A DNA stretch of 64,000 nt, from the NCBI GenBank assembly GCA_039029455.1, contig JBCCGE010000002.1:38066-102065 (forward strand), in the 5' to 3' direction. Numbering within the stretch: position 1 is the first letter of the stretch; each line of letters starts with the position of its first letter. Below are positions 27,119-58,909 of the stretch, one piece after another. This stretch comes from Pseudomonadota bacterium (GTDB lineage Bacteria; Pseudomonadota; Gammaproteobacteria; Arenicellales; Poriferihabitantaceae). The notes under the pieces were generated by a model. The model made no database searches. It saw only the letters and a program-made list of their open reading frames with translations, and had not been told where the DNA came from. Made by a program: the position numbers and the translations under genes.

Positions 27119-27241
27119 GCCCACATGGACGTGGTCGGATGTTTCATTGCCCAATATTTGATGGCACGAATTCAATGTGGACATATCGATCCACAACAGA
27201 TTGAGCTAGAATCCGAGCGGTCGATTTTTACCCTTCCGGAT

Positions 27242-27658
27242 ATGTTTTTCGAGTTTTTAGCGCAACACTGGTATCTGTTTGCAATGCTGGCAATTATTTT
27301 GCTCTTGCTGGCATTTGGACCGAACACTGCGGCTGCGGGCGCCAAAAAAATATCGGCGTTACAGCTTCCCCAGTTGCAATCCCGACAGGGCGCTGCAATT
27401 GTAGATGTGAGCACGCAGGAAGAATTTGCTGCAGGTCACATTGAGCAGTCAAAAAATATTCCGTTGAAAACTCTCGAGGAAAACCTGGATCAGTTGAAAA
27501 AGTTCAAGGAAAAGCCCGTGATTCTTGTCTGTGCGGCGGGTACCAGAGCCCCGAAAGCTGCGGGTGTGTTGCGTAAAGGTGGGTTTTCCGACCTCTACTT
27601 ACTCGATGGCGGTCTGGCGGCATGGCGAAAGGAAAATCTGCCGTTGGCTAAAAATTGA
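27242..27658 (+). CDS. Rhodanese-like membrane protein (YibN-like)
   Basis: N-terminal TM, FAAGHI..SKNIP, LVCAAG, LDGGLAAW..ENLP; upstream of secB. Confidence 0.85.
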   Translation: MFFEFLAQHWYLFAMLAIILLLLAFGPNTAAAGAKKISALQLPQLQSRQGAAIVDVSTQEEFAAGHIEQSKNIPLKTLEENLDQLKKFKEKPVILVCAAGTRAPKAAGVLRKGGFSDLYLLDGGLAAWRKENLPLAKN

Positions 27659-31262: not shown

Positions 31263-33371
31263 ATGGTCATCGAATTCTCGCAAGCAGAACTGGCGCGCGG
31301 ACTGCGCCTTATTCTCGGACCGGTTCTGTCCTCGGAGCGCGGGATCGATCATATCGCCACTTCCTGGGCGAATCTGAAGCGGAAAGACCAGGAATTCTGC
31401 ATTCGGTGGACCAACGCCATCGCCAAATCCAACTATGAACTCGGATTGCATTTTGCCGAATCCGCGTCCGACGCACTCGGCAAAATGGACGACGACACAG
31501 CACATCTGTGGGCGCAGTATATTCTGGCCCGATACGATGAGGCAGGAAGAACTGGCGGTACCCACGCGATTGACTGCAAGGGTGATTTTGTCACCGAGAT
31601 GCAGGCGCGGAAAGTCAGGGTATGTCTGAGCGAAATTCAGTCCGTTTTTGAAACCGTTTTGCAGGGGATGTCGGGTCGGGAGCTGACATTGCGACCAGGG
31701 GACAAAGCATGGACAGACTCAGTAAATATTTTTCTGCCAAAGGAAATTGAGCGATTTGGCAGCGCTGAACACAACTACAGCCTGTACAAAATCAGTGCGG
31801 TCATGGTGTGGGCACAGATTCGTTTTGGAACCTTTCGCAGGCGCGATATTGACGAACCGCATCTGGAAGATCGCCTGCGCAATATTTCAGCAACACAAAA
31901 TGCTCAGCAGTGGTTTGTGTGTGTCGAAAACTACCGGTTAAGACACCGGGTGCTTGAGGAATTTCCAGGTCTTGAGCGTGATATGAATTTGCTTGAGAAA
32001 CTCACTGACACGCATATCTGGACGCTACCGAAACAGATTAAGACACCGTCATCCGATGTGGAAGATACACTGGACGTGGTGCTTGAACATCTGGAACAGT
32101 CCGTTCCTGCAAGCCCACCCTATTTTGCTGACTTCGATCTGACTGCAACACGACAGCGGGCCGAGGAGCGTCTGGATGAAGAGAAGGAGCAACTTAAGGT
32201 TGCGCTGGGCGAGTTACTGGAGGCAGAAGTTTCAACGGCAGATAAAGAGGTCGATGTAGGTAAGCTGAATTTTGAAATTAAAAAATATGACCGGGACAAG
32301 GACCACAGTCCTGAGCTGCAGCTGGACGGTGAGACGATTCAGGCCAGCGAGAAAGTGGAGCAGCTACTTAAGTCGATGCTTTTGGATCTGGATAACCTGC
32401 CCTCTGACTGGCTCGATGCTGGCGGAAAGGGGGATTACGGCGACAGCGACCAGGACAATTCTCGCCAGGATGGGCACTGGCTGCCGCAAAGCGAGCGCGA
32501 CGGTGTGGCGCTGTATGACGAATGGGATTTTCGCCGCAAAGGCTTTAGACAAAATTGGTGCGCCGTTTTTGAACGGCCGGGACCCGAGGCAGACTCCGAT
32601 TTTGTCGACGATACTTTGGCCGAGTATTCTTCGTTGGTGAAAGATATTCGTCGCCAGTTTGAAGCCATTCGCGGGGCAAATACGAAACTCAAAGCCCAGG
32701 CGGATGGCGACGATGTGGATTTTGATGCGCTTGTAGACGCTTATGCCGATATGCGCCTGGGCAGTGAAATGAGTGAGCTACTGTTTACCCAGACTCAGAA
32801 TAAAGACAGAAGCCTCTCTGTTGCGTTTATGGTTGATGTCAGCGGATCGACGAAAGGATGGATCAATGACGCCGAACGGCAGAGTCTGGTTCTGCTCTGC
32901 GAGGCCTTGAATCGACTGGGTGATCAATACGCAATCTACGGGTTTTCCGGAATGACCAGAAACCGCTGTGATGTTTTCGAAGTCAAGAGATTTGACCAAC
33001 TCTACAACGAAACGGTCAGACGGCGGATCAGCGGCCTGTCACCGCAGGATTACACACGCATGGGTCCGGCGATTCGACATCTCTGCGACAAGCTCGTGAA
33101 TGAGGAAAGCAAAACCCGTCTTCTGATCACCCTTTCCGATGGAAAGCCGGATGACTACGATGGTTATCGGGGACAATATGGCATAGAGGACACCCGGCAC
33201 GCCTTACTTGAGGCACGTAGTATGGGTATTCACGCGTTCTGCATCACAATCGATAAGCAGGCTGGCGACTACCTGCCCTATATGTATGGACCGGCCAGTT
33301 TTGTGCTTGTCGATGATGTGCGCAAATTGCCTCATAAAGTGGTCGACGTGTACCGACGGCTGACGACCTGA
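31263..33371 (+). CDS. CbbO/NorD-type VWA-domain adaptor protein
   Basis: YDEWDF, DGDDVDFDA, MIDAS DVSGS, YTRMGPAIRH, LSDGKPDD..Y.G.YGIEDT, C-terminal YRRLTT. Confidence 0.85.
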   Translation: MVIEFSQAELARGLRLILGPVLSSERGIDHIATSWANLKRKDQEFCIRWTNAIAKSNYELGLHFAESASDALGKMDDDTAHLWAQYILARYDEAGRTGGTHAIDCKGDFVTEMQARKVRVCLSEIQSVFETVLQGMSGRELTLRPGDKAWTDSVNIFLPKEIERFGSAEHNYSLYKISAVMVWAQIRFGTFRRRDIDEPHLEDRLRNISATQNAQQWFVCVENYRLRHRVLEEFPGLERDMNLLEKLTDTHIWTLPKQIKTPSSDVEDTLDVVLEHLEQSVPASPPYFADFDLTATRQRAEERLDEEKEQLKVALGELLEAEVSTADKEVDVGKLNFEIKKYDRDKDHSPELQLDGETIQASEKVEQLLKSMLLDLDNLPSDWLDAGGKGDYGDSDQDNSRQDGHWLPQSERDGVALYDEWDFRRKGFRQNWCAVFERPGPEADSDFVDDTLAEYSSLVKDIRRQFEAIRGANTKLKAQADGDDVDFDALVDAYADMRLGSEMSELLFTQTQNKDRSLSVAFMVDVSGSTKGWINDAERQSLVLLCEALNRLGDQYAIYGFSGMTRNRCDVFEVKRFDQLYNETVRRRISGLSPQDYTRMGPAIRHLCDKLVNEESKTRLLITLSDGKPDDYDGYRGQYGIEDTRHALLEARSMGIHAFCITIDKQAGDYLPYMYGPASFVLVDDVRKLPHKVVDVYRRLTT

Positions 33372-50999: not shown

Positions 51000-51134
51000 C
51001 CTCTTTGCAGTGCGGTTGCTGTATCTCAGCTCCTGTTATTGATATGATTTTCGTCAAAAACGTCTGTTATCCAGGATGGAGTAAGGAGCGGAGAGTCAAC
51101 AGTCCGGTCTAATGCCATAAATACATTGCGTAAT

Positions 51135-52157
51135 ATGAAAGAAAATACAAACCAACAACACTATACCCGCCGAGTTCTGATTCAGATGTTGGTGGTTTTA
51201 ATTGTTCTTGTTGCGGTGATTGTCTGGCAATGGAATACATTGCACGACATATATATTGACAATCAGGTCAACAAGATTGGGTGGGCGATCAACGGATTGA
51301 TTAGCGTTTTGTTCATTTGTGGAATGATTGAGCTGGTCAGACGCTTTATCGAGTACCACAATCAGGAAAACTCCATACGACGTTTTCTCAAGAATGTCAG
51401 GCGCAACGAAGATCCAATCAATGGATTGCGAAAAACTGACATGGTGGTTGATCGTTATCTGACGCTTCGGGATTTGAACAGTCGGCGGGCGAGTATTAAC
51501 CAGAATGCGCTCGCCGCCACTCTTCTGGCCGCCGAGGCCAGTCGCAACAGTTTTTTAAAGTTCATACACAACACGCTGATTCTTACCGGCGTATTTGGCA
51601 CCATTATTTCGTTGTCAATTTCCCTTTTGGGGGCCTCTGACATGATTCAGGGGTCATTGCAAAACGAAGGTCAGAATTCTGGCCTGGGCACGATGATTTT
51701 CGGAATGTCCACCGCCTTGTCGACAACAATGACGGCGATCATCTTTTATCTTATTTTTGGGTATTTCTATATCAAACTTACGGACACGCAAACGTATCTG
51801 ATCAGTCGCGTCGAGGAAGTTACCGCAACGACACTGCTACCGCATCTGCAGCTGGACAAGGATGTGGTGATAAAGGATTTTTCAGAATCTATCCGCAGCG
51901 CGGCTGAATTGATTGAGAGATTCGATGCGACCCAATCCGAGTACGCGCGATCAGCGGATCAGCTACAGCAGAATACCGCTCAAATGGCGGCGAATGTTGA
52001 GTTGCAGACCCGGCAGTCAGATGCTGCAACCCAACAGCAGCTGCTGGAAAAACTCGATCAGTTGCTCGAATTACATTTGCAGGCTCAGCAGTCCAATCAG
52101 AAGTCGATGGAACAGATGATTAAGCTACTGCAAAAAGGTTTTCGCCTGAAATCCTGA
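51135..52157 (+). CDS. MotA/TolQ/ExbB (ZorA-like) ion-channel family membrane protein
   Basis: Four hydrophobic segments; LTGVFGTIISL and GMSTALSTT helices; ~125-aa helical Q-rich C-terminal tail. Confidence 0.72.
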   Translation: MKENTNQQHYTRRVLIQMLVVLIVLVAVIVWQWNTLHDIYIDNQVNKIGWAINGLISVLFICGMIELVRRFIEYHNQENSIRRFLKNVRRNEDPINGLRKTDMVVDRYLTLRDLNSRRASINQNALAATLLAAEASRNSFLKFIHNTLILTGVFGTIISLSISLLGASDMIQGSLQNEGQNSGLGTMIFGMSTALSTTMTAIIFYLIFGYFYIKLTDTQTYLISRVEEVTATTLLPHLQLDKDVVIKDFSESIRSAAELIERFDATQSEYARSADQLQQNTAQMAANVELQTRQSDAATQQQLLEKLDQLLELHLQAQQSNQKSMEQMIKLLQKGFRLKS

Positions 52158-52170
52158 AGGAGTTTTCGGT

Positions 52171-53529
52171 ATGAGTGAAAACGGCTTCATTGACCTGCGT
52201 CTTGATCATGCCTCTCAGGCGGTGGGTGACGACAGTGTATGGCCGTCGTTTACTGACATAATGACGGTCATCGTGATGATTTTCATGATGACTCTTGTGG
52301 TTATTATGCTGCGGAACACCGAGTTGAATCAGGCGCTGACCACCTCTCTGAAAGCCAAGGAGGAGACATTTCAACAGAATCAGGGACTGTCATTCGAGGT
52401 GAATACTCTGAAATCTCGAGTCGACGAGCTAAGTTCGAGTTTGAATCTGACTGCGGGTGAGCGAGATGCGTTGAACCGGCAGCTGCTGTTGGAGATTCAG
52501 CGGGTGGAAGCTCTGGCATCAGACAAGCTAAACCTGTCGACGAAACTTGAAGAAGAGGTTATACGGGCCCAGCAACTGGCCAATGACAAGGTTGGCCTCG
52601 AAGGCGAAATTGTTACGGTCAGATCCGAGGCAGAAGAACTTGCTGCCGAGAAAATAGTTTTGACCGAGCTTCGGGATCAGATTAGCGTCGAGCTTAGCAG
52701 TACCCGAGAGCAAAACCAGAAACTTGCAGAGGAAGTTGAGGTCTTGCTCCAGCAACGCGAGTCACTCCAGCTGGCCCAAACCCAAAGCAAAAATCAGATC
52801 GCGTTGCTAAAGGAGAAAGAAACAACACTGACACGTCAGATGGATGCCCTGAGTCAGCAGTTTCAGGCGCTGCAGATTGAGTCAGAGGAAAATGCCGCCA
52901 CACTGAGTGACGAGAATCAGACACTGAGTGAGAAAATTCAGAATGTAACCTCGCAACTGACGCAACTTAATGTAGTGCTGCAGGAAGAACAGCAACAAAA
53001 TATCGATTTGTCCGCATTGCTTGAGGCTGAGCAGGCGCGATACGCTGGGCTTGAAAAAAACCAGCAAAACATTGCAGACCGGATCATTGCAGCGGATAAA
53101 CAGATTCTGGTGCTGAATAGACAGATTCGCGAAAAAGAGCAGGAGAATGAGGAGCTGCAGGAACAGGCCCAGTTTAGAGGTCAGCAGTTGGTTTCACTCA
53201 GGGATGAATACGATTCGCTCGAAGAAAAGTATCGCGACCTGATCAGGCCGGCCCGCAGTTCGGCCGGCAAATACGTTGTGGAGGTTTGGGTTCAGAAAAC
53301 CAATGGAGTGCTTAACTATCGAATACGGGAGCCCGGAGGCGCGGAACCCCGTACGATTAATCGGGAAAATCTGGATGCCTTGCTGTCAAGCCTGAAAGAC
53401 AGCAAGGGAAGAACGCTGTATACCAAGGTCATAATTCCGGAGAACAGTCAGCTCTCGCACAATGAAGCCTGGCGGTTTACGCAGGAAATACTGACCCGTT
53501 ATGACTACTACTACCAGCCCGTAAACTAG
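52171..53529 (+). CDS. MotB/ZorB-like single-pass protein with long coiled coil and ExbD-like C-terminal domain
   Basis: [17 protein letters not shown] with Asp29; ~310-aa proline-free heptad region; ~95-aa alpha/beta tip; RBS AAGGAG. Confidence 0.68.
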
Positions 53530-55436: not shown

Positions 55437-56789
55437 TCACCGCAGGGTGACAAGCTCTTCAGCCGCGGTCGGGTGAATCGCTACGGTGCGGTCGAAATCA
55501 GCCTTGGTAGCCCCCATTTTTATGGCGACTGCAAAGCCCTGAAGCATTTCGTCAGCGGCGTCCCCGATTAGATGACAGCCGACAATTTCTTCACGGTCAC
55601 CCTGAGTGATCAGCTTTACCGTTGTCGGCAGTTTTTCCTCGCTGACCGCATACAGCATATTGATAAACCGGCTGGTATAAATTTTCAGGTTGTCGCGACC
55701 AAACTTTTCGACGGCCTCACCCTCAGTCATTCCAACTGTGCCTATTGGAGGATGACTGAATATTACGGTCGGAATGTTCTCGTAATCCATTTTTGAGGTT
55801 TGATCACCAAGAAACAGGCGTGTTGCGAGTTTGCGGCCCGCAGCGATTGCCACTGGGGTAAGTGGCGCGCTGGTGGTAGCATCGCCGAGTGCGTAGATAC
55901 CTTTCGCTGACGTATTTTGAGCGTCATCGACACTGATAAAGCCGCGAGAGTCTGTATTGACCCCAGCCTTTTCGAGATCGAGAGACCGGGTATTTGGATG
56001 TCGTCCAATTGCCCATAAAACACAGTCGTACGAACCCTCTTGCGGACCATCCATCGTTGCGTACGAAATTGTGCCGTCGTCGTTCCTGGTTAACTCAAGC
56101 GGCTGACTTTGGGTCTTGATGTCTACTCCGGCTTGTTGCATCTGCTCCATCAGAACATTGGATAGTGTTTGGTCAAAACTTCGCAAAACCTTGTCTTTAC
56201 GAAGAGCAAGGGTCACTTTACTGCCAAGCCCGTGCAACAGACCGGCAACTTCGACAGCAATGTATCCGGCGCCCACGATCAGGGGTTTTTCAGGCTGCTG
56301 ATTGAGTTCGAAAAAACCGTCGCTATCGATTCCAAGTTCTGCCCCGGGGACGTTTGGAACGGTAGGACGTCCGCCGGTCGCAACCAGGATGTGAGGTGCG
56401 GTTAATTTCTGACCGTTCACTGAAACGGTATTATCGTTTTCAAATTTTGCCAGGCCACGGATAAGACTGACGCCCGAGTTTTCGAGGTTTCTCTCGTAGA
56501 TGCCGTTCAGTCGGGAAACATAGGCATCCCGAGCGCCTTTAAGGCTCGGCCAGTTAAAACCTTTGACACTGATATCAAACCCATAACTCGGCGCAAGACT
56601 AAGCGTTTCAGCGACCTGGGACGCATTCCACATCACCTTTTTTGGGACGCAACCGACATTAACGCAGGTTCCACCCAGGGCACCGCTCTCGATAACTGCG
56701 ACATTGGCCCCATATTCAGCTGCACGGCGGGCGGAAGCTATACCACCGCTACCTCCGCCGATAACGATAAAATCGTACTGATCTGTCAT
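55437..56789 (-). CDS. gor: Glutathione-disulfide reductase
   Basis: [37 protein letters not shown]. Confidence 0.95.
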
Positions 56790-56821
56790 TTTTAAACCTT
56801 ATTGAACGGGTTAATTAGTTT

Positions 56822-58909
56822 ATGTCGCAAGAAAATCCACTTTTGGCCGTCGCCAATTCAAAAAATGAGTTTCCCCGATTTGATCTTATCGTGCCTGAGC
56901 ACGTTGAACCGGCACTCGACACGATATTGAGTCAAAATCGTGATCGGATCCAGCAGCTTATCCGTGATATTAGTGATCCCGACTGGGAGAACTTCATGGC
57001 GCCACTGGAAGACCTGGACGATCGTCTGGAAAAGATGTGGTCACCCGTGTCACATCTCAATAGCGTAGACGACAACGATTTATTGCGACAAGCCTACGAG
57101 GCATGTCTGCCAAAACTTTCGGAATATTCTTCCGAAATGGGACAAAACAAGGATTTGTTTGACAAAGTCAGCCAGTTGCGAAATTCAGGGACTTTTGATG
57201 AGCTCAATCAGGCGCAAAAAAAATCTATCGAGAACGATCTTAGAGCGTTCAGGTTGTCCGGAATCGATCTTTCAAAGAAGGATCAGGATCGATATCGCGA
57301 AATTTCGCGAAGGCTGTCGGAGCTGTCAAACCGATTCTCCCAAAACGTGCTCGATTCAACGGATGCCTGGCATCTCGACATTAGCGAACAATCGCAGCTT
57401 GAAGGAATTCCGGAAACCGCGATATCACTCGCCAAATCGGTTGCTGAGCGGGCACAGCAGGATGGTTGGAGGTTCACGCTGCAGGCACCTTCATATATCC
57501 CGTTTATGACATTTTGCGCCGATCGGGCTCTGCGTGAGGAAATGTATTGCGCCTACGTGACCCGGGCGAGTGAAGAGGGACCTAATGCCGGTAGCTTCGA
57601 CAATGGTCCCCTGATTGTCGAGATACTCCAGTTGCGCCGGGAAATATCGCAGATTCTCGGATTTGAAAATTTTGCCGCGTACTCTCTGGAAACAAAGATG
57701 GCGGATACACCTGAGCAGGTCGAGTCGTTTCTTCGTGATCTTGCAGCCAGGTCTCGACCTGCCGCTGAGAACGAATGGCGGCAATTGAACGAATTTGCTC
57801 AGCAGGAATGTGGCATTGACGAACTGAAAGCGTGGGATTTGGCCTGGGTCAGCGAAAAGCTGCAACAAAAACTATTCGACTTTTCTCCAGAGGAACTGCG
57901 TGCGTATTTTCCGCTTCCCCGTGTGTTGAGTGGAATGTTTGAAACCGTTTCCCGTTTGTTCTCTATTCGCATTGATGAAATCAAGCCCACCGAAGCCGAA
58001 CGGCCGGCAGTCTGGGATGACTCGGTTTCAATTTTTCGAATCTCCGATCCGGACGGTCAAATCAGAGGCTATTTTTATACCGACCTGTTCGCGCGCAGCA
58101 CAAAACGCGGTGGGGCGTGGATGGCTGACTGCGCCAGTCGTCGAAAGTCATCCAACGGTACTCAATTACCGGTGGCATTTTTAACATGTAATTTTACCTC
58201 TCCGGTAGACGACAAACCGGCACTACTGACCCACGATGAAGTGATGACCCTGTTCCATGAATTTGGACACAGTCTGCATCACATGCTGACAAAGATTGAT
58301 GTCTCCGGCGTGTCCGGCATTAATGGTGTGCCTTGGGATGCGGTTGAACTGCCGAGTCAGTTTCTGGAAAACTGGTGTTGGGAGAGGGGTACTCTGGACC
58401 TGATATCCGGTCATGTCGAAACCGGTGAGACATTGCCCGATCATTTGCTTGAAAGAATGCGGGCCGGAAAGAATTTTCAATCTGCGATGCAGATGATACG
58501 ACAAGTGGAATTCAGTCTTTTTGACTTGCTGCTGCATTCGCAGGATGCAGAAGAAGGCTTCGACAGCGTGCAGTCTTTGCTTGATAGCGTTCGCCGTCAG
58601 ATTGCGGTTTCGATTCCACCCGCCTTTAACCGGTTTCAAAACAGTTTCGGGCATATATTTGCAGGCGGCTACGCTGCGGGTTACTATAGCTATAAATGGG
58701 CCGAAGTACTGTCTGCGGATGCCTTCAGTCTGTTTGAAGAACGCGGGGTGTTCGATGAAAAAACGGGACACTCGTTTCTGACGAATATTCTCGAAGCTGG
58801 GGGGGCTGAAGAACCGATGACATTATTCAAGGCTTTTCGCGGTCGCGAACCCACAGTGGACGCACTGTTGCGACACTCTGGGCTCGATACGGCCAGTAGT
58901 TCATCATGA
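56822..58909 (+). CDS. prlC: Oligopeptidase A (M3)
   Basis: KRGGAWM, FHEFGH, WDAVELPSQ, HIFAGGYAAGYYSYKWAE. Confidence 0.94.
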   Translation: MSQENPLLAVANSKNEFPRFDLIVPEHVEPALDTILSQNRDRIQQLIRDISDPDWENFMAPLEDLDDRLEKMWSPVSHLNSVDDNDLLRQAYEACLPKLSEYSSEMGQNKDLFDKVSQLRNSGTFDELNQAQKKSIENDLRAFRLSGIDLSKKDQDRYREISRRLSELSNRFSQNVLDSTDAWHLDISEQSQLEGIPETAISLAKSVAERAQQDGWRFTLQAPSYIPFMTFCADRALREEMYCAYVTRASEEGPNAGSFDNGPLIVEILQLRREISQILGFENFAAYSLETKMADTPEQVESFLRDLAARSRPAAENEWRQLNEFAQQECGIDELKAWDLAWVSEKLQQKLFDFSPEELRAYFPLPRVLSGMFETVSRLFSIRIDEIKPTEAERPAVWDDSVSIFRISDPDGQIRGYFYTDLFARSTKRGGAWMADCASRRKSSNGTQLPVAFLTCNFTSPVDDKPALLTHDEVMTLFHEFGHSLHHMLTKIDVSGVSGINGVPWDAVELPSQFLENWCWERGTLDLISGHVETGETLPDHLLERMRAGKNFQSAMQMIRQVEFSLFDLLLHSQDAEEGFDSVQSLLDSVRRQIAVSIPPAFNRFQNSFGHIFAGGYAAGYYSYKWAEVLSADAFSLFEERGVFDEKTGHSFLTNILEAGGAEEPMTLFKAFRGREPTVDALLRHSGLDTASSSS

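Follow-up and report, generated by a model that had tools for sequence, protein, structure and literature searches.

Two adjacent genes, here called A and B, were found on the forward strand of the window (the whole stretch of 64,000 nucleotides that was analysed), with rnpA-yidD-yidC-mnmE on one side of the pair and mnmG on the other. The reading frame of gene A was counted from an ATG, and an alternative TTG start lies at 51126. Gene B begins 13 nt after gene A and ends 17 nt before mnmG, and the sequence AGGAG precedes its ATG by 8-9 nt. Re-examination of the sequence bore out the open reading frames, coordinates, gaps and motifs that the initial annotation had described for the two genes. 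Since at least 1694 homologues of A and at least 573 homologues of B exist, A and B are not chance open reading frames. A promoter and terminator scan, which was otherwise uninformative, detected no terminator-like site between B and mnmG. No Rfam family matched at the locus, and neither flanking repeats nor signs of a mobile element were found around the pair. The features of both genes are listed in Table 1.

Table 1. Features of genes A and B, with nucleotide positions in the window and residue numbers in the respective protein.
Feature	Residues	Position (nt)	Strand	Basis or remark
Gene A		51135-52157	+	ORF, 340 aa counted from ATG; predicted membrane subunit of the MotA/ExbB superfamily
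A, TM1 and TM2, joined by a short periplasmic loop	14-32, 50-72	51174-51350	+	Hydropathy; model helices 10-31, 47-89
A, predicted cytoplasmic domain between TM2 and TM3, three helices, basic	73-138	51351-51548	+	Model helices 47-89, 103-116, 123-137
A, TM3-TM4 channel core	139-213	51549-51773	+	Conservation and hhalign
A, GVFGT motif (within LTGVFGT)	152-156	51588-51602	+	Sequence
A, GMSTALSTT motif	190-198	51702-51728	+	Sequence
A, predicted cytoplasmic helical hairpin tail	214-340	51774-52157	+	Model helices 180-294, 298-336
A, GFRL motif, end of tail	335-338	52137-52148	+	G335, F336, R337 invariant; L338 nearly invariant
Gene B		52171-53529	+	ORF, 452 aa; B-type (MotB/ZorB/TolR-like) subunit
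B, transmembrane helix	24-47	52240-52311	+	Conservation, ZorB matches; Asp29 codon 52255-52257
B, coiled-coil stalk (311 aa, 0 proline)	48-358	52312-53244	+	Heptad periodicity
B, tip: RPAR linker and predicted TolR/ExbD-like alpha/beta domain, Y-D-Y-Y-Y end	359-452	53245-53526	+	AF2 model

Gene A showed four hydropathy peaks (residues 14-32, 50-72, 148-171 and 195-213), and the basic residues preceding TM1 suggest that its N-terminus faces inward. The helical tail that had been noted behind the last of these segments appears in the model as a hairpin ending in the conserved GFRL motif. The tail measures ~95-125 aa in 19 of 20 fetched homologues and ~440 aa in the remaining one (L049). In the alignment of homologues, R107 of the cytoplasmic domain between TM2 and TM3 was invariant and E134 and R137 were nearly invariant, and the channel core contained the invariant residues G152, V153, G155, T156, G190, M191, T193, A194, T197, and T198.

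When the AF2 model of A (pLDDT 82) was searched against the PDB by Foldseek, all of the 26 rows listed were ExbB, TolQ, ZorA, PomA, or MotA chains, with ExbB and TolQ on top (best E 8.8e-4, prob 0.8-1.0, target-normalised TM 0.34-0.57). The model thus supports the earlier proposal that A has a MotA/ExbB-type fold. By hhalign, the core of A and that of 20 canonical TolQ/ExbB proteins (GLLGTV / ALxTT) were aligned with Prob 69% and E 4.4e-5, over 47 columns only. The comparison with PF01618 that had been suggested gave a divided result: 24 of 25 members of the A family matched at E<=0.1 (best 3.7e-6), whereas the window's own A scored 16.0 bits in hmmscan and 19.2 bits in the genome search, below the cut-off of 22.9. 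In the ESM Atlas clusters nearest to A, PF01618 was present in 21-31% of the members. The NCBIfam models of TolQ, ExbB, and MotA matched none of the 25 A-family members at E<=0.01, and a sequence-profile search of the PDB with A returned coiled-coil noise only. Nothing informative was obtained when the profiles of A and of the tip of B were compared by hhalign with single TolQ, ExbB, or TolR sequences.

Gene B showed a single hydropathy peak (residues 29-47), and its helix starts with W24-P-S-F-T-D29. The start of the MotB helix contains an Asp, and the motif of B resembles that start. W24, P25, S26, D29, V33, and F38 of the helix were invariant among the aligned homologues, and the conservation of Asp29 in 21/21 and 24/24 aligned B homologues confirms that B carries a MotB/ZorB-like helix with a conserved Asp, as had been proposed. 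Asp29 aligns with the Asp of TolR and ExbD, and full-length B matched a TolR/ExbD profile in the helix only, with E 0.0014. The ZorB models of PADLOC matched the window's B at residues 15-73 only (E 4.6e-6 to 5.7e-4). The best of these models matched 23 of 24 B-family members, all weakly (best E 7.1e-9), and the solved type I ZorB chain 8vvn_B matched the B profile with E 2.6e-6.

Between the helix and the tip, the heptad periodicity of residues 51-345 was matched by 2 of 500 shuffles. These residues include six Gly and no Pro, and no Pro occurs anywhere between P25 and P360. Proline is likewise absent from 106 of the 107 stalks in the B family. One heptad of the stalk is tandemly duplicated at 52900-52941. 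The charge distribution around the helix gives no positive-inside signal because the N-terminal tail has a net charge of -2.5 and the segment after the helix one of -0.4; the stalk is probably periplasmic, a topology taken from homology only. In the family, the stalk can be as short as 104 or as long as 723 residues, and its median length is 188 (~28 nm). The initial annotation had calculated a rod of ~45 nm, and this arithmetic is correct for the window's B and does not carry over to the family. Such variation argues against a fixed ruler and is hard to fit with a constant periplasmic span. It also weakens the earlier suggestion that the rod is a spacer for an expanded periplasm.

The AF2 model of the tip (pLDDT 81) was compared with 48,161 chains by VIA-align. 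The first rank was TolR (2jwk), superposed at an rmsd of 2.2 Å over 73 of 74 residues with Z 8.3, a value within the range that unrelated models can reach according to the tool. TolR 5by4 ranked second (Z 7.8) and ExbD 2pfu ninth (Z 4.7), and the best unrelated chain had Z 5.6. When an independent model was used to search the structures of the ESM Atlas, an ExbD cluster was the first neighbour outside the family (TM 0.55/0.48). Foldseek gave no clear match for the tip and did not recover TolR. At the sequence level, PF02472 matched one of 20 B tips (E 0.02), the hhalign comparison with 18 TolR/ExbD proteins was not significant (E 0.11), and a PDB sequence-profile search with the tip yielded nothing significant. 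OmpA and MotB_plug were absent from the Pfam matches shown for B, for its tip, and for the B family. On the structural matches of its model, the tip is predicted to have the TolR/ExbD periplasmic fold, with a sequence similarity that is not significant. The tip had been described as lacking an OmpA-type motif and as otherwise unrecognised; the former agrees with the Pfam searches, and the latter is superseded by the likeness to TolR/ExbD. The tip domain constitutes a compact family of 383 representative clusters, for which no curated model was found.

A and B were adjacent in 100 of 100 loci examined (20/20 and 80/80), and they overlapped by 1 or 4 nt in 10 of 20 loci. The pair was present in 27 of 30 close relatives, at a single locus in each genome, which one draft divides between two contig ends. 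The gene downstream of the pair is mnmG in 53 of 80 loci. The synteny rnpA-yidC-mnmE-A-B-mnmG is conserved, and the order mnmE-A-B-mnmG is inherited across the Arenicellales-like clade. A quick tree of A follows taxonomy. Since synteny is conserved, the pair is not the orphan insertion that it was first taken for: it belongs to the core of these genomes, and its position between mnmE and mnmG is inherited. The description of the pair as uncharacterised still applies, as no homologue of A or B among the matches listed bears a functional name. Automatic annotation has given the B homologues coiled-coil names such as 'chromosome segregation ATPase' and 'septal ring factor EnvC', and a literature search of main texts readable without subscription found no paper on the A-B family.

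The genome also has canonical Tol and Ton systems of its own, with tolQ-tolR-tolA-like-tolB on contig C80, TonB, and two further ExbB/ExbD sets; A-B is a fourth system beside these Tol, TonB, and extra ExbBD sets. Because the tol genes are present on contig C80, a replacement of Tol-Pal by A-B was rejected. A flagellar stator was likewise rejected, because FliG was not found in the genome (91% complete) and B contains no OmpA domain. ZorC was not found, and the EH_Signature domain had no match in the genome, in a search that was silent in control genomes as well. Neither the window nor the 112 neighbour ORFs of 20 loci contained a TonB_C- or TolA-like gene, and no ZorC-, ZorD-, or ZorE-like gene or other defence gene adjoined the pair, either in the window or at 20 other loci. 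The searches of the window therefore agree with the earlier statement that it encodes no partner gene. A weak ExbD match elsewhere in the window (~27281-27535) falls on a membrane-anchored rhodanese and was rejected as a chance match.

Ion-driven motors of 5:2 architecture energise flagella and gliding as well as nutrient import, the integrity of the envelope, and defence against phages. A-B resembles TolQ-TolR-TolA and ExbB-ExbD-TonB in the predicted fold of A, in the single N-terminal B helix with the essential Asp, and in the predicted fold of the tip, and all of them are likely to serve one purpose, namely to couple proton flow at the inner membrane to the outer envelope. However, A has four TM segments instead of the three of TolQ/ExbB as well as a hairpin tail, and its sequence similarity to these proteins is marginal. 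TolR and ExbD are small (~140 aa) and have their domain close to the helix, whereas B has 452 aa and a coiled coil of ~100-720 residues is placed between the two in its family. Moreover, no linked gene for an arm of the TolA or TonB type was found near A-B. With MotA-MotB and PomA-PomB, A-B shares the four TM segments of A and the cytoplasmic domain between TM2 and TM3, and a 5:2 architecture is expected. In contrast to MotA and PomA, the cytoplasmic domain of A is small, with three helices. The absence of an OmpA domain from B, of FliG among the genes found, and of any NCBIfam MotA match also sets the pair apart from these stators. B is unlike all characterised B subunits in that a proline-free coiled coil separates its membrane helix from a TolR/ExbD-like terminal domain.

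In GldL-GldM and PorL-PorM, the long dimeric arm of the axle subunit crosses the periplasm and drives an outer-membrane machine. The GldM arm is composed of globular domains, not of a coiled coil. The likeness to A-B is a functional analogy only. The pair described here occurs in Pseudomonadota, and no type IX secretion genes are linked to it. GldL or GldM chains were not among the chains listed in the fold searches of A and the tip.

ZorA-ZorB (8vvn) is similar to A-B in that ZorB gave the best sequence match to the B helix and in the presence of long helical appendages. ZorA is weakly similar to A: the best ZorA model matched 12 of 25 A-family members weakly (best E 6.3e-5), and the window's A had no match to the PADLOC models at E<=1. 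In PMC11946911, ZorA is described as having three TM helices and a ~500-residue pentameric cytoplasmic tail, which is the output of ZorAB, and ZorB as having an OmpA-type peptidoglycan-binding domain fused directly to its helix. In contrast, there are four TM segments in A and its tail is 127 aa long, and B has a long rod and a TolR-like tip in place of an OmpA-type domain. The pair is also core rather than accessory, and ZorC/D/E were not found linked to it. The initial annotation regarded A-B as the reverse of Zorya. This is only half right: the long rod is indeed on B, but A also bears a conserved cytoplasmic tail, which is even of considerable length in L049. Another relevant system is the TPH-vWA proposal, which (PMC12204202) concerns B-type 'transpore helix' subunits with a conserved Asp and their own periplasmic load domain, proposed to pair with a TolQ-like pentamer with no separate TolR. 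Those subunits differ from B in having vWA domains and forming heterologous pairs, whereas a coiled coil and a TolR-like domain are combined here in a single gene.

The observed folds, conserved residues, pairing, distribution, and genomic context make it probable that A-B represents a distinct, uncharacterised family of proton-driven motors of the 5:2 type whose periplasmic arm is built in and whose role in the envelope is a housekeeping one. We infer its stoichiometry, ion, B topology, rotation, and load as follows. By analogy with solved motors, a ring of A would surround two B helices, and protons would pass Asp29 of B and the conserved Thr/Ser residues of the last two helices of A. This passage might drive a relative rotation of A and B. 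Because the coiled coil lies between the helix and the tip, the B dimer itself would be the periplasmic arm, with a length similar to the distance from the inner to the outer membrane. Through this arm the motor may exert torque or tension on a target in the cell wall or the outer membrane, to which the TolR-like tip would bind. The pair would thereby act like TolQR-TolA or ExbBD-TonB with the arm inside B, or like GldLM, in a housekeeping envelope function that is neither defence nor motility. Bracing or regulation of the ring may fall to the hairpin tail of A, which ends in GFRL. A complex prediction with four copies of A (residues 8-232) and two copies of B (residues 16-58) gave a score of 0.05 (mark 0.32), which has no bearing on binding either way.

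A more specific picture, which we put forward tentatively and regard as rather doubtful, is a third means by which the inner membrane could drive the outer envelope: a rotary motor powered by protons, in which a coiled-coil drive shaft or winch of 25-100 nm forms the axle and works without an adaptor of the TonB/TolA type. As parts of the same picture, the wound or swung B dimer would pull or move the wall or outer-membrane target via a TolR-like clamp, the pair would serve as a core machine of the envelope in Arenicellales-like sponge symbionts, SUP05-type bacteria, and Sedimenticola and Chromatiaceae relatives, and heptad duplication would tune the length of the stalk lineage by lineage.

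The same motor may instead have the opposite output, which seems unlikely to us. In that case, the tip would do no more than fix the B dimer to peptidoglycan, a role proposed for TolR and MotB, and the A ring would work in the cytoplasm, where its hairpin and GFRL end would engage a partner encoded elsewhere in the manner of MotA or ZorA. The TolR-type fold predicted for the tip is consistent with this, as TolR is the peptidoglycan-binding stator of Tol-Pal according to the title of entry 5by4, and so is the invariance of G335, F336, and R337 at the end of the A tail. The long tail of A in L049 also recalls ZorA, whose tail is the output according to PMC11946911. However, an anchor needs no stalk of 100-700 residues: peptidoglycan in E. 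coli lies ~9 nm from the inner membrane, as given in PMC11946911, against a median stalk of ~28 nm. A long two-stranded coil would also be a poor torsional anchor, and the tail of A is merely ~95-125 aa long in nearly all of the fetched homologues. It is improbable that the pair is not a motor at all, with B serving mainly as a coiled-coil scaffold or tether that has a structural role in the periplasm, for example in envelope spacing or division, and A as a membrane partner that lost ion-coupled movement. The coiled-coil names of the B homologues and the highly variable stalk would suit such a role, but the strictest conservation is that of the motor residues (Asp29 of B and Gly/Thr/Ser on the last two helices of A), which a purely structural role would not keep at 25-40% overall identity.

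An anti-phage envelope sensor, Zorya-like or other, in which ZorAB-related subunits detect damage and signal to distant effectors, is very improbable, even though the ZorB models were the best sequence match for the helix region of B, 8vvn_B matched the B profile, and nearly half of the A-family members were weakly matched by the best ZorA model. The architecture of both subunits differs from that of ZorA and ZorB as described above, and neighbours of the ZorC/D/E or defence type are absent from the window and the 20 other loci. The pair is near-universal in the order (27/30) with one locus per genome, its synteny is of the housekeeping type, and its tree follows taxonomy. Defence systems show the opposite distribution, being patchy and borne on islands.

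For each family of 5:2 motors, the key question is which target is acted on and which part turns. In the housekeeping motor proposed here, the axle subunit would carry a rod that is long, simple, and variable in length, and the gene pair forms part of the conserved core in several marine lineages. Such a motor would also explain what two widespread 'hypothetical' proteins, encoded beside the rnpA-yidC-mnmE cluster, do. The cultured or isolate genomes in which homologues were found include those of Sedimenticola selenatireducens DSM 17993 and of one isolate each from the Chromatiaceae and the Arenicellales, and this makes the family amenable to the question of whether the B dimer can serve as a rotating shaft or a tension arm.

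The two open reading frames of the initial annotation, which lie between mnmE and mnmG, were confirmed in the sequence. rpmH, rnpA, yidD, yidC, and mnmE are located upstream of A. The A–B gap is 13 nt, an AGGAG motif lies 8–9 nt 5′ of the B start, and B is separated from mnmG by 17 nt. The GC content of the pair was not unusual, no flanking repeats were found around it, and no Rfam family matched at the locus.

Positions of the two genes in the window
Gene	Position	Strand	Product and start
A	51135-52157	+	340 aa from ATG; TTG three codons upstream
B	52171-53529	+	452 aa

Hydropathy peaks of A were found at residues 14–32, 50–72, 148–171, and 195–213. The Pfam MotA_ExbB model (PF01618) matched residues 132–227 with 16 bits, below its cut-off of 22.9, and A gave no match to PADLOC models and no meaningful match to NCBIfam. 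PF01618 weakly matched 24 of 25 A family members, none of which was matched by the NCBIfam TolQ, ExbB, and MotA models at E ≤ 0.01. An AF2 model of A, built from an alignment of 25 homologues (pLDDT 82; all structures here are predictions from alignments of 20–25 sequences), contained helices at residues 10–31, 47–89, 103–116, 123–137, and 139–173, a single long helix at 180–294, and a return helix at 298–336. When this model was compared with the PDB by Foldseek, all 26 matches listed were ExbB, TolQ, ZorA, PomA, or MotA chains, the best among them being 9ddo_B (E 8.8e-4). A profile of 20 canonical TolQ/ExbB proteins from the window's genome and 12 relatives was aligned with the A profile over 47 columns of the pore-lining core only (Prob 69%, E 4.4e-5), placing GVFGT opposite GLLGTV and GMSTALSTT opposite GIAEALITT. 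The Thr/Ser positions of A are conserved, and G152, V153, G155, T156, G190, M191, T193, A194, T197, T198, E227, and the C-terminal G335-F336-R337 are invariant. Since fold and motif matched and no curated family did, A is placed within the superfamily but outside every curated family.

B has a single hydropathy peak at residues 29–47, and the stretch W-P-S-F-T-D29-I-M comes directly after the first 23 residues. W24, P25, S26, D29, V33, F38, and N49 were invariant in 24 B sequences, and Asp29 was conserved in all 21 sequences of a second alignment. Residues 20–73 matched ZorB models (E 4.6e-6), which also matched 23 of 24 B family members, and the B profile matched the solved type I ZorB 8vvn_B (E 2.6e-6) and 8vvi_A. 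In a comparison with TolR/ExbD, the helix was aligned with Asp on Asp (E 0.0014). The colinear match to MotB/ZorB/TolR suggests that the N-terminus of B is inside and that the stalk and tip are periplasmic; the charge distribution did not help in deciding the topology.

The last 115 residues of B, modeled on their own (pLDDT 81), were predicted to form three strands, a helix, a strand, and a helix. Sequence searches with the tip gave no match, Foldseek gave no clear match, and neither OmpA nor MotB_plug was among the matches listed in Pfam searches of B, the tip, and the B family. Structural alignment of the tip against 48,161 chains ranked Haemophilus influenzae TolR 2jwk first (Z 8.3, rmsd 2.2 Å, 73 of 74 residues), E. 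coli TolR 5by4 second (Z 7.8), and ExbD 2pfu ninth (Z 4.7), with the best unrelated chain at Z 5.6, although Z of 7–8 may occur by chance. The first non-family neighbor of the ESM Atlas's own tip model was an ExbD cluster (TM 0.55/0.48, 80 residues). Because the top matches belong to the partner family of ExbB/TolQ and the Atlas neighbor is an ExbD cluster, the modeled tip is taken to be a TolR/ExbD-type domain. A tip profile matched 383, 352, and 234 of 1.84 billion 50%-identity representatives at E ≤ 0.001, 1e-10, and 1e-30, respectively, and the domain was C-terminal in 150 of 150 listed representatives. These counts and this placement, as judged from sequence, define a compact family that stays separate from the ExbD/TolR family.

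Prolines of B occur only at positions 25, 360, 388, 393, 423, and 450, which leaves 334 consecutive residues without proline. A 3.5-residue period was detected at residues 51–345 (power 0.48 versus 0.23 ± 0.07 for shuffled sequences; matched by 2 of 500 shuffles). The stalk of 311 residues corresponds to ~46 nm at 0.1485 nm per residue. In the 107 of 150 listed tip representatives that had both end motifs, the median stalk was 188 residues (~28 nm; quartiles 174–237, range 104–402), and 106 of the 107 stalks were proline-free. The stalk pattern was parsed in 53 of 80 B genes of the wider clade of the window; these genes encode 332–841 aa with spacings of 212–723 residues, and the longest stalks, including that of Ca. 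Thioglobus, have 653–688 proline-free residues. Four B homologues (loci L094, L096, L092, and L098) have 806–841 aa; one is in a SUP05-type Candidatus Thioglobus MAG, and L094 and L096, which are almost identical, are carried by two contigs of a single MAG. Repeated segments are visible by eye in the longest stalks. In the window, positions 52900–52941 contain a tandem 21-nt duplication (81% identical) of exactly one heptad (TLSDENQ/TLSEKIQ), a pattern that fits changes of stalk length in whole-heptad steps.

The usual distance between the inner and outer membranes is close to the common stalk length. The distance from the inner membrane to the peptidoglycan is ~9 nm in E. coli, according to the Zorya paper PMC11946911, and thus the tip probably acts farther out than the inner face of the wall. 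In a normal periplasm, rods reaching 100 nm are too long to stand perpendicular; in those lineages they must lie obliquely, along the wall, or folded back.

In a 90%-clustered database, at least 1694 homologues of A and at least 573 of B were found. Nearly all are named 'hypothetical'; a few A homologues carry the name 'MotA/TolQ/ExbB proton channel family protein', and coiled-coil misnomers occur among the B homologues. A was detected in 57 of 300 scored genomes of the class sample at E ≤ 1e-5 and in 41 at E ≤ 3.4e-31 (own genome included, G248 left out), and in 36 of 301 genomes of the phylum sample at E ≤ 1e-20, again with the own genome. G296, one of the 41, is flagged as unpublished, and nothing stated here rests on it. 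The other 35 phylum-sample matches belong to two families labeled outside the window's class (f259, 32; f281, 3), and their scores were as strong as those of close relatives. The pair is core among the closest relatives, being present in 28 of 31 genomes: the window's own, 17 of 18 others of the same family, and 10 of 12 others in the order, these sets being samples in which related genomes are not independent of one another. Each genome with the pair carries one locus, which in the draft G304 is split across two contig ends.

Of 598 candidate stretches in named genomes, 483 were confirmed, and the best 80 of the 483 comprised Candidatus Poriferihabitaceae, Ca. Spongiihabitans, Arenicellales, a SUP05-type Ca. 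Thioglobus, Acidiferrobacteraceae, Sedimenticola (including S. selenatireducens DSM 17993), and Chromatiaceae. Pairing is strict: A and B were adjacent in 20 of 20 class-sample and 80 of 80 named-genome loci, and overlapped by 1 or 4 nt in 10 of the former. Down to ~40% A identity, mnmG followed B in 53 and mnmE preceded A in 48 of the 80 loci; neither gene was found near the Sedimenticola and Chromatiaceae loci or the 20 class-sample loci. A quick maximum-likelihood tree of A, with SH-aLRT support only, contained a clade of 41 rows (support 98), in which the window grouped with a Poriferihabitaceae sequence, and a clade of 17 rows (support 100) that held Sedimenticolaceae and Chromatiaceae. 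Immediately beyond mnmG, positions 55437–58909 encode a pyridine-nucleotide disulphide reductase and an M3 oligopeptidase; these two genes directly adjoin the pair in the genome G076 (locus L042, 9283–12819), which hints at wider shared synteny.

The 112 neighbor ORFs of 20 loci contained no family in more than three loci (D-Tyr-tRNA deacylase in three) and no TonB-, TolA-, OmpA-, or Zorya-related gene. The context in the window is housekeeping: a Pfam scan of 59 ORFs gave mostly housekeeping families and none related to TonB, TolA, or Zorya, and 63 ORFs gave only generic ATPase, GTPase, and methyltransferase cross-matches with PADLOC. A sub-threshold ExbD match (18.3 bits) in the gene at 27125–27658 was dismissed as chance; this gene encodes a membrane-anchored rhodanese, and secB and gpsA come after it. 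A 702-aa ORF (31263–33371) directly 5′ of an M23 peptidase and an S41 (Ctp-type) protease had no Pfam match at E ≤ 1e-6 and no PADLOC match at E ≤ 1e-5.

The assembly (3.70 Mb, 90.9% complete) contains three more MotA_ExbB genes above threshold, each beside ExbD-type genes, on contigs C80, C30, and C161. In addition, C80 encodes TolB_N, with a TonB_C-type (TolA-like) gene lying between tolR and tolB; another TonB_C gene is on C141. One of the three canonical sets, on C161 (806–2050), consists of a 294-aa ExbB-like gene with two ExbD-type genes after it. FliG was not found in this 90.9%-complete genome. The pair is thus an additional system: replacement of Tol or Ton is rejected by the genome's own Tol and Ton genes, and a flagellar stator by the failure to find FliG. 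No EH_Signature (ZorC) domain was found in the genome, a search that was matchless in control genomes too.

By fold, TolQR and ExbBD are the closest relatives of the pair, and by sequence ZorB is closest to the B helix. By analogy with solved motors (PMC11946911 and what is known of MotAB, ExbBD, and TolQR), two B helices would sit inside a ring of five A subunits, protons would pass through Asp29, and A would turn relative to B. We favor, with moderate confidence, the reading in which the B dimer serves as an integral periplasmic arm, which the motor would twist or swing while the TolR-like tip holds a target at the wall or outer membrane. The main competing reading, in which the motor is kept, the tip is a wall anchor, and the A tail is the output, is rather unlikely. 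A purely structural role of the pair, with its conserved Asp29, is improbable. A defence role for the pair is slightly more improbable still.

In function, GldLM offers the closest analogy to the pair, together with the TPH-vWA subunits, whose pairing with TolQ-like genes was recently proposed (PMC12204202). The A–B family has not been previously described in the literature searched, in which no paper on it was found, supplements and subscription journals being outside the reach of the search. In a 2025 survey of MotAB relatives (PMC12505986), many non-flagellar pairs with diverse appendages and no known function are described as 'generic ion transporter' pairs; the word 'coiled' is absent from its text.

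Two A homologues have unusually long open frames. That at L038 (G090:C161, 8351–10702, minus strand) has an open frame of 783 aa in which the match starts at residue 483, which points either to a start placed too far upstream or to a fusion at the N-terminus. That at L049 (G070:C3, 7650–9659, minus strand) is 669 aa long, and its helical tail at the C-terminus spans ~440 residues versus the usual ~100, a ZorA-like elongation of the cytoplasmic tail within the family, and its B has 439 aa.
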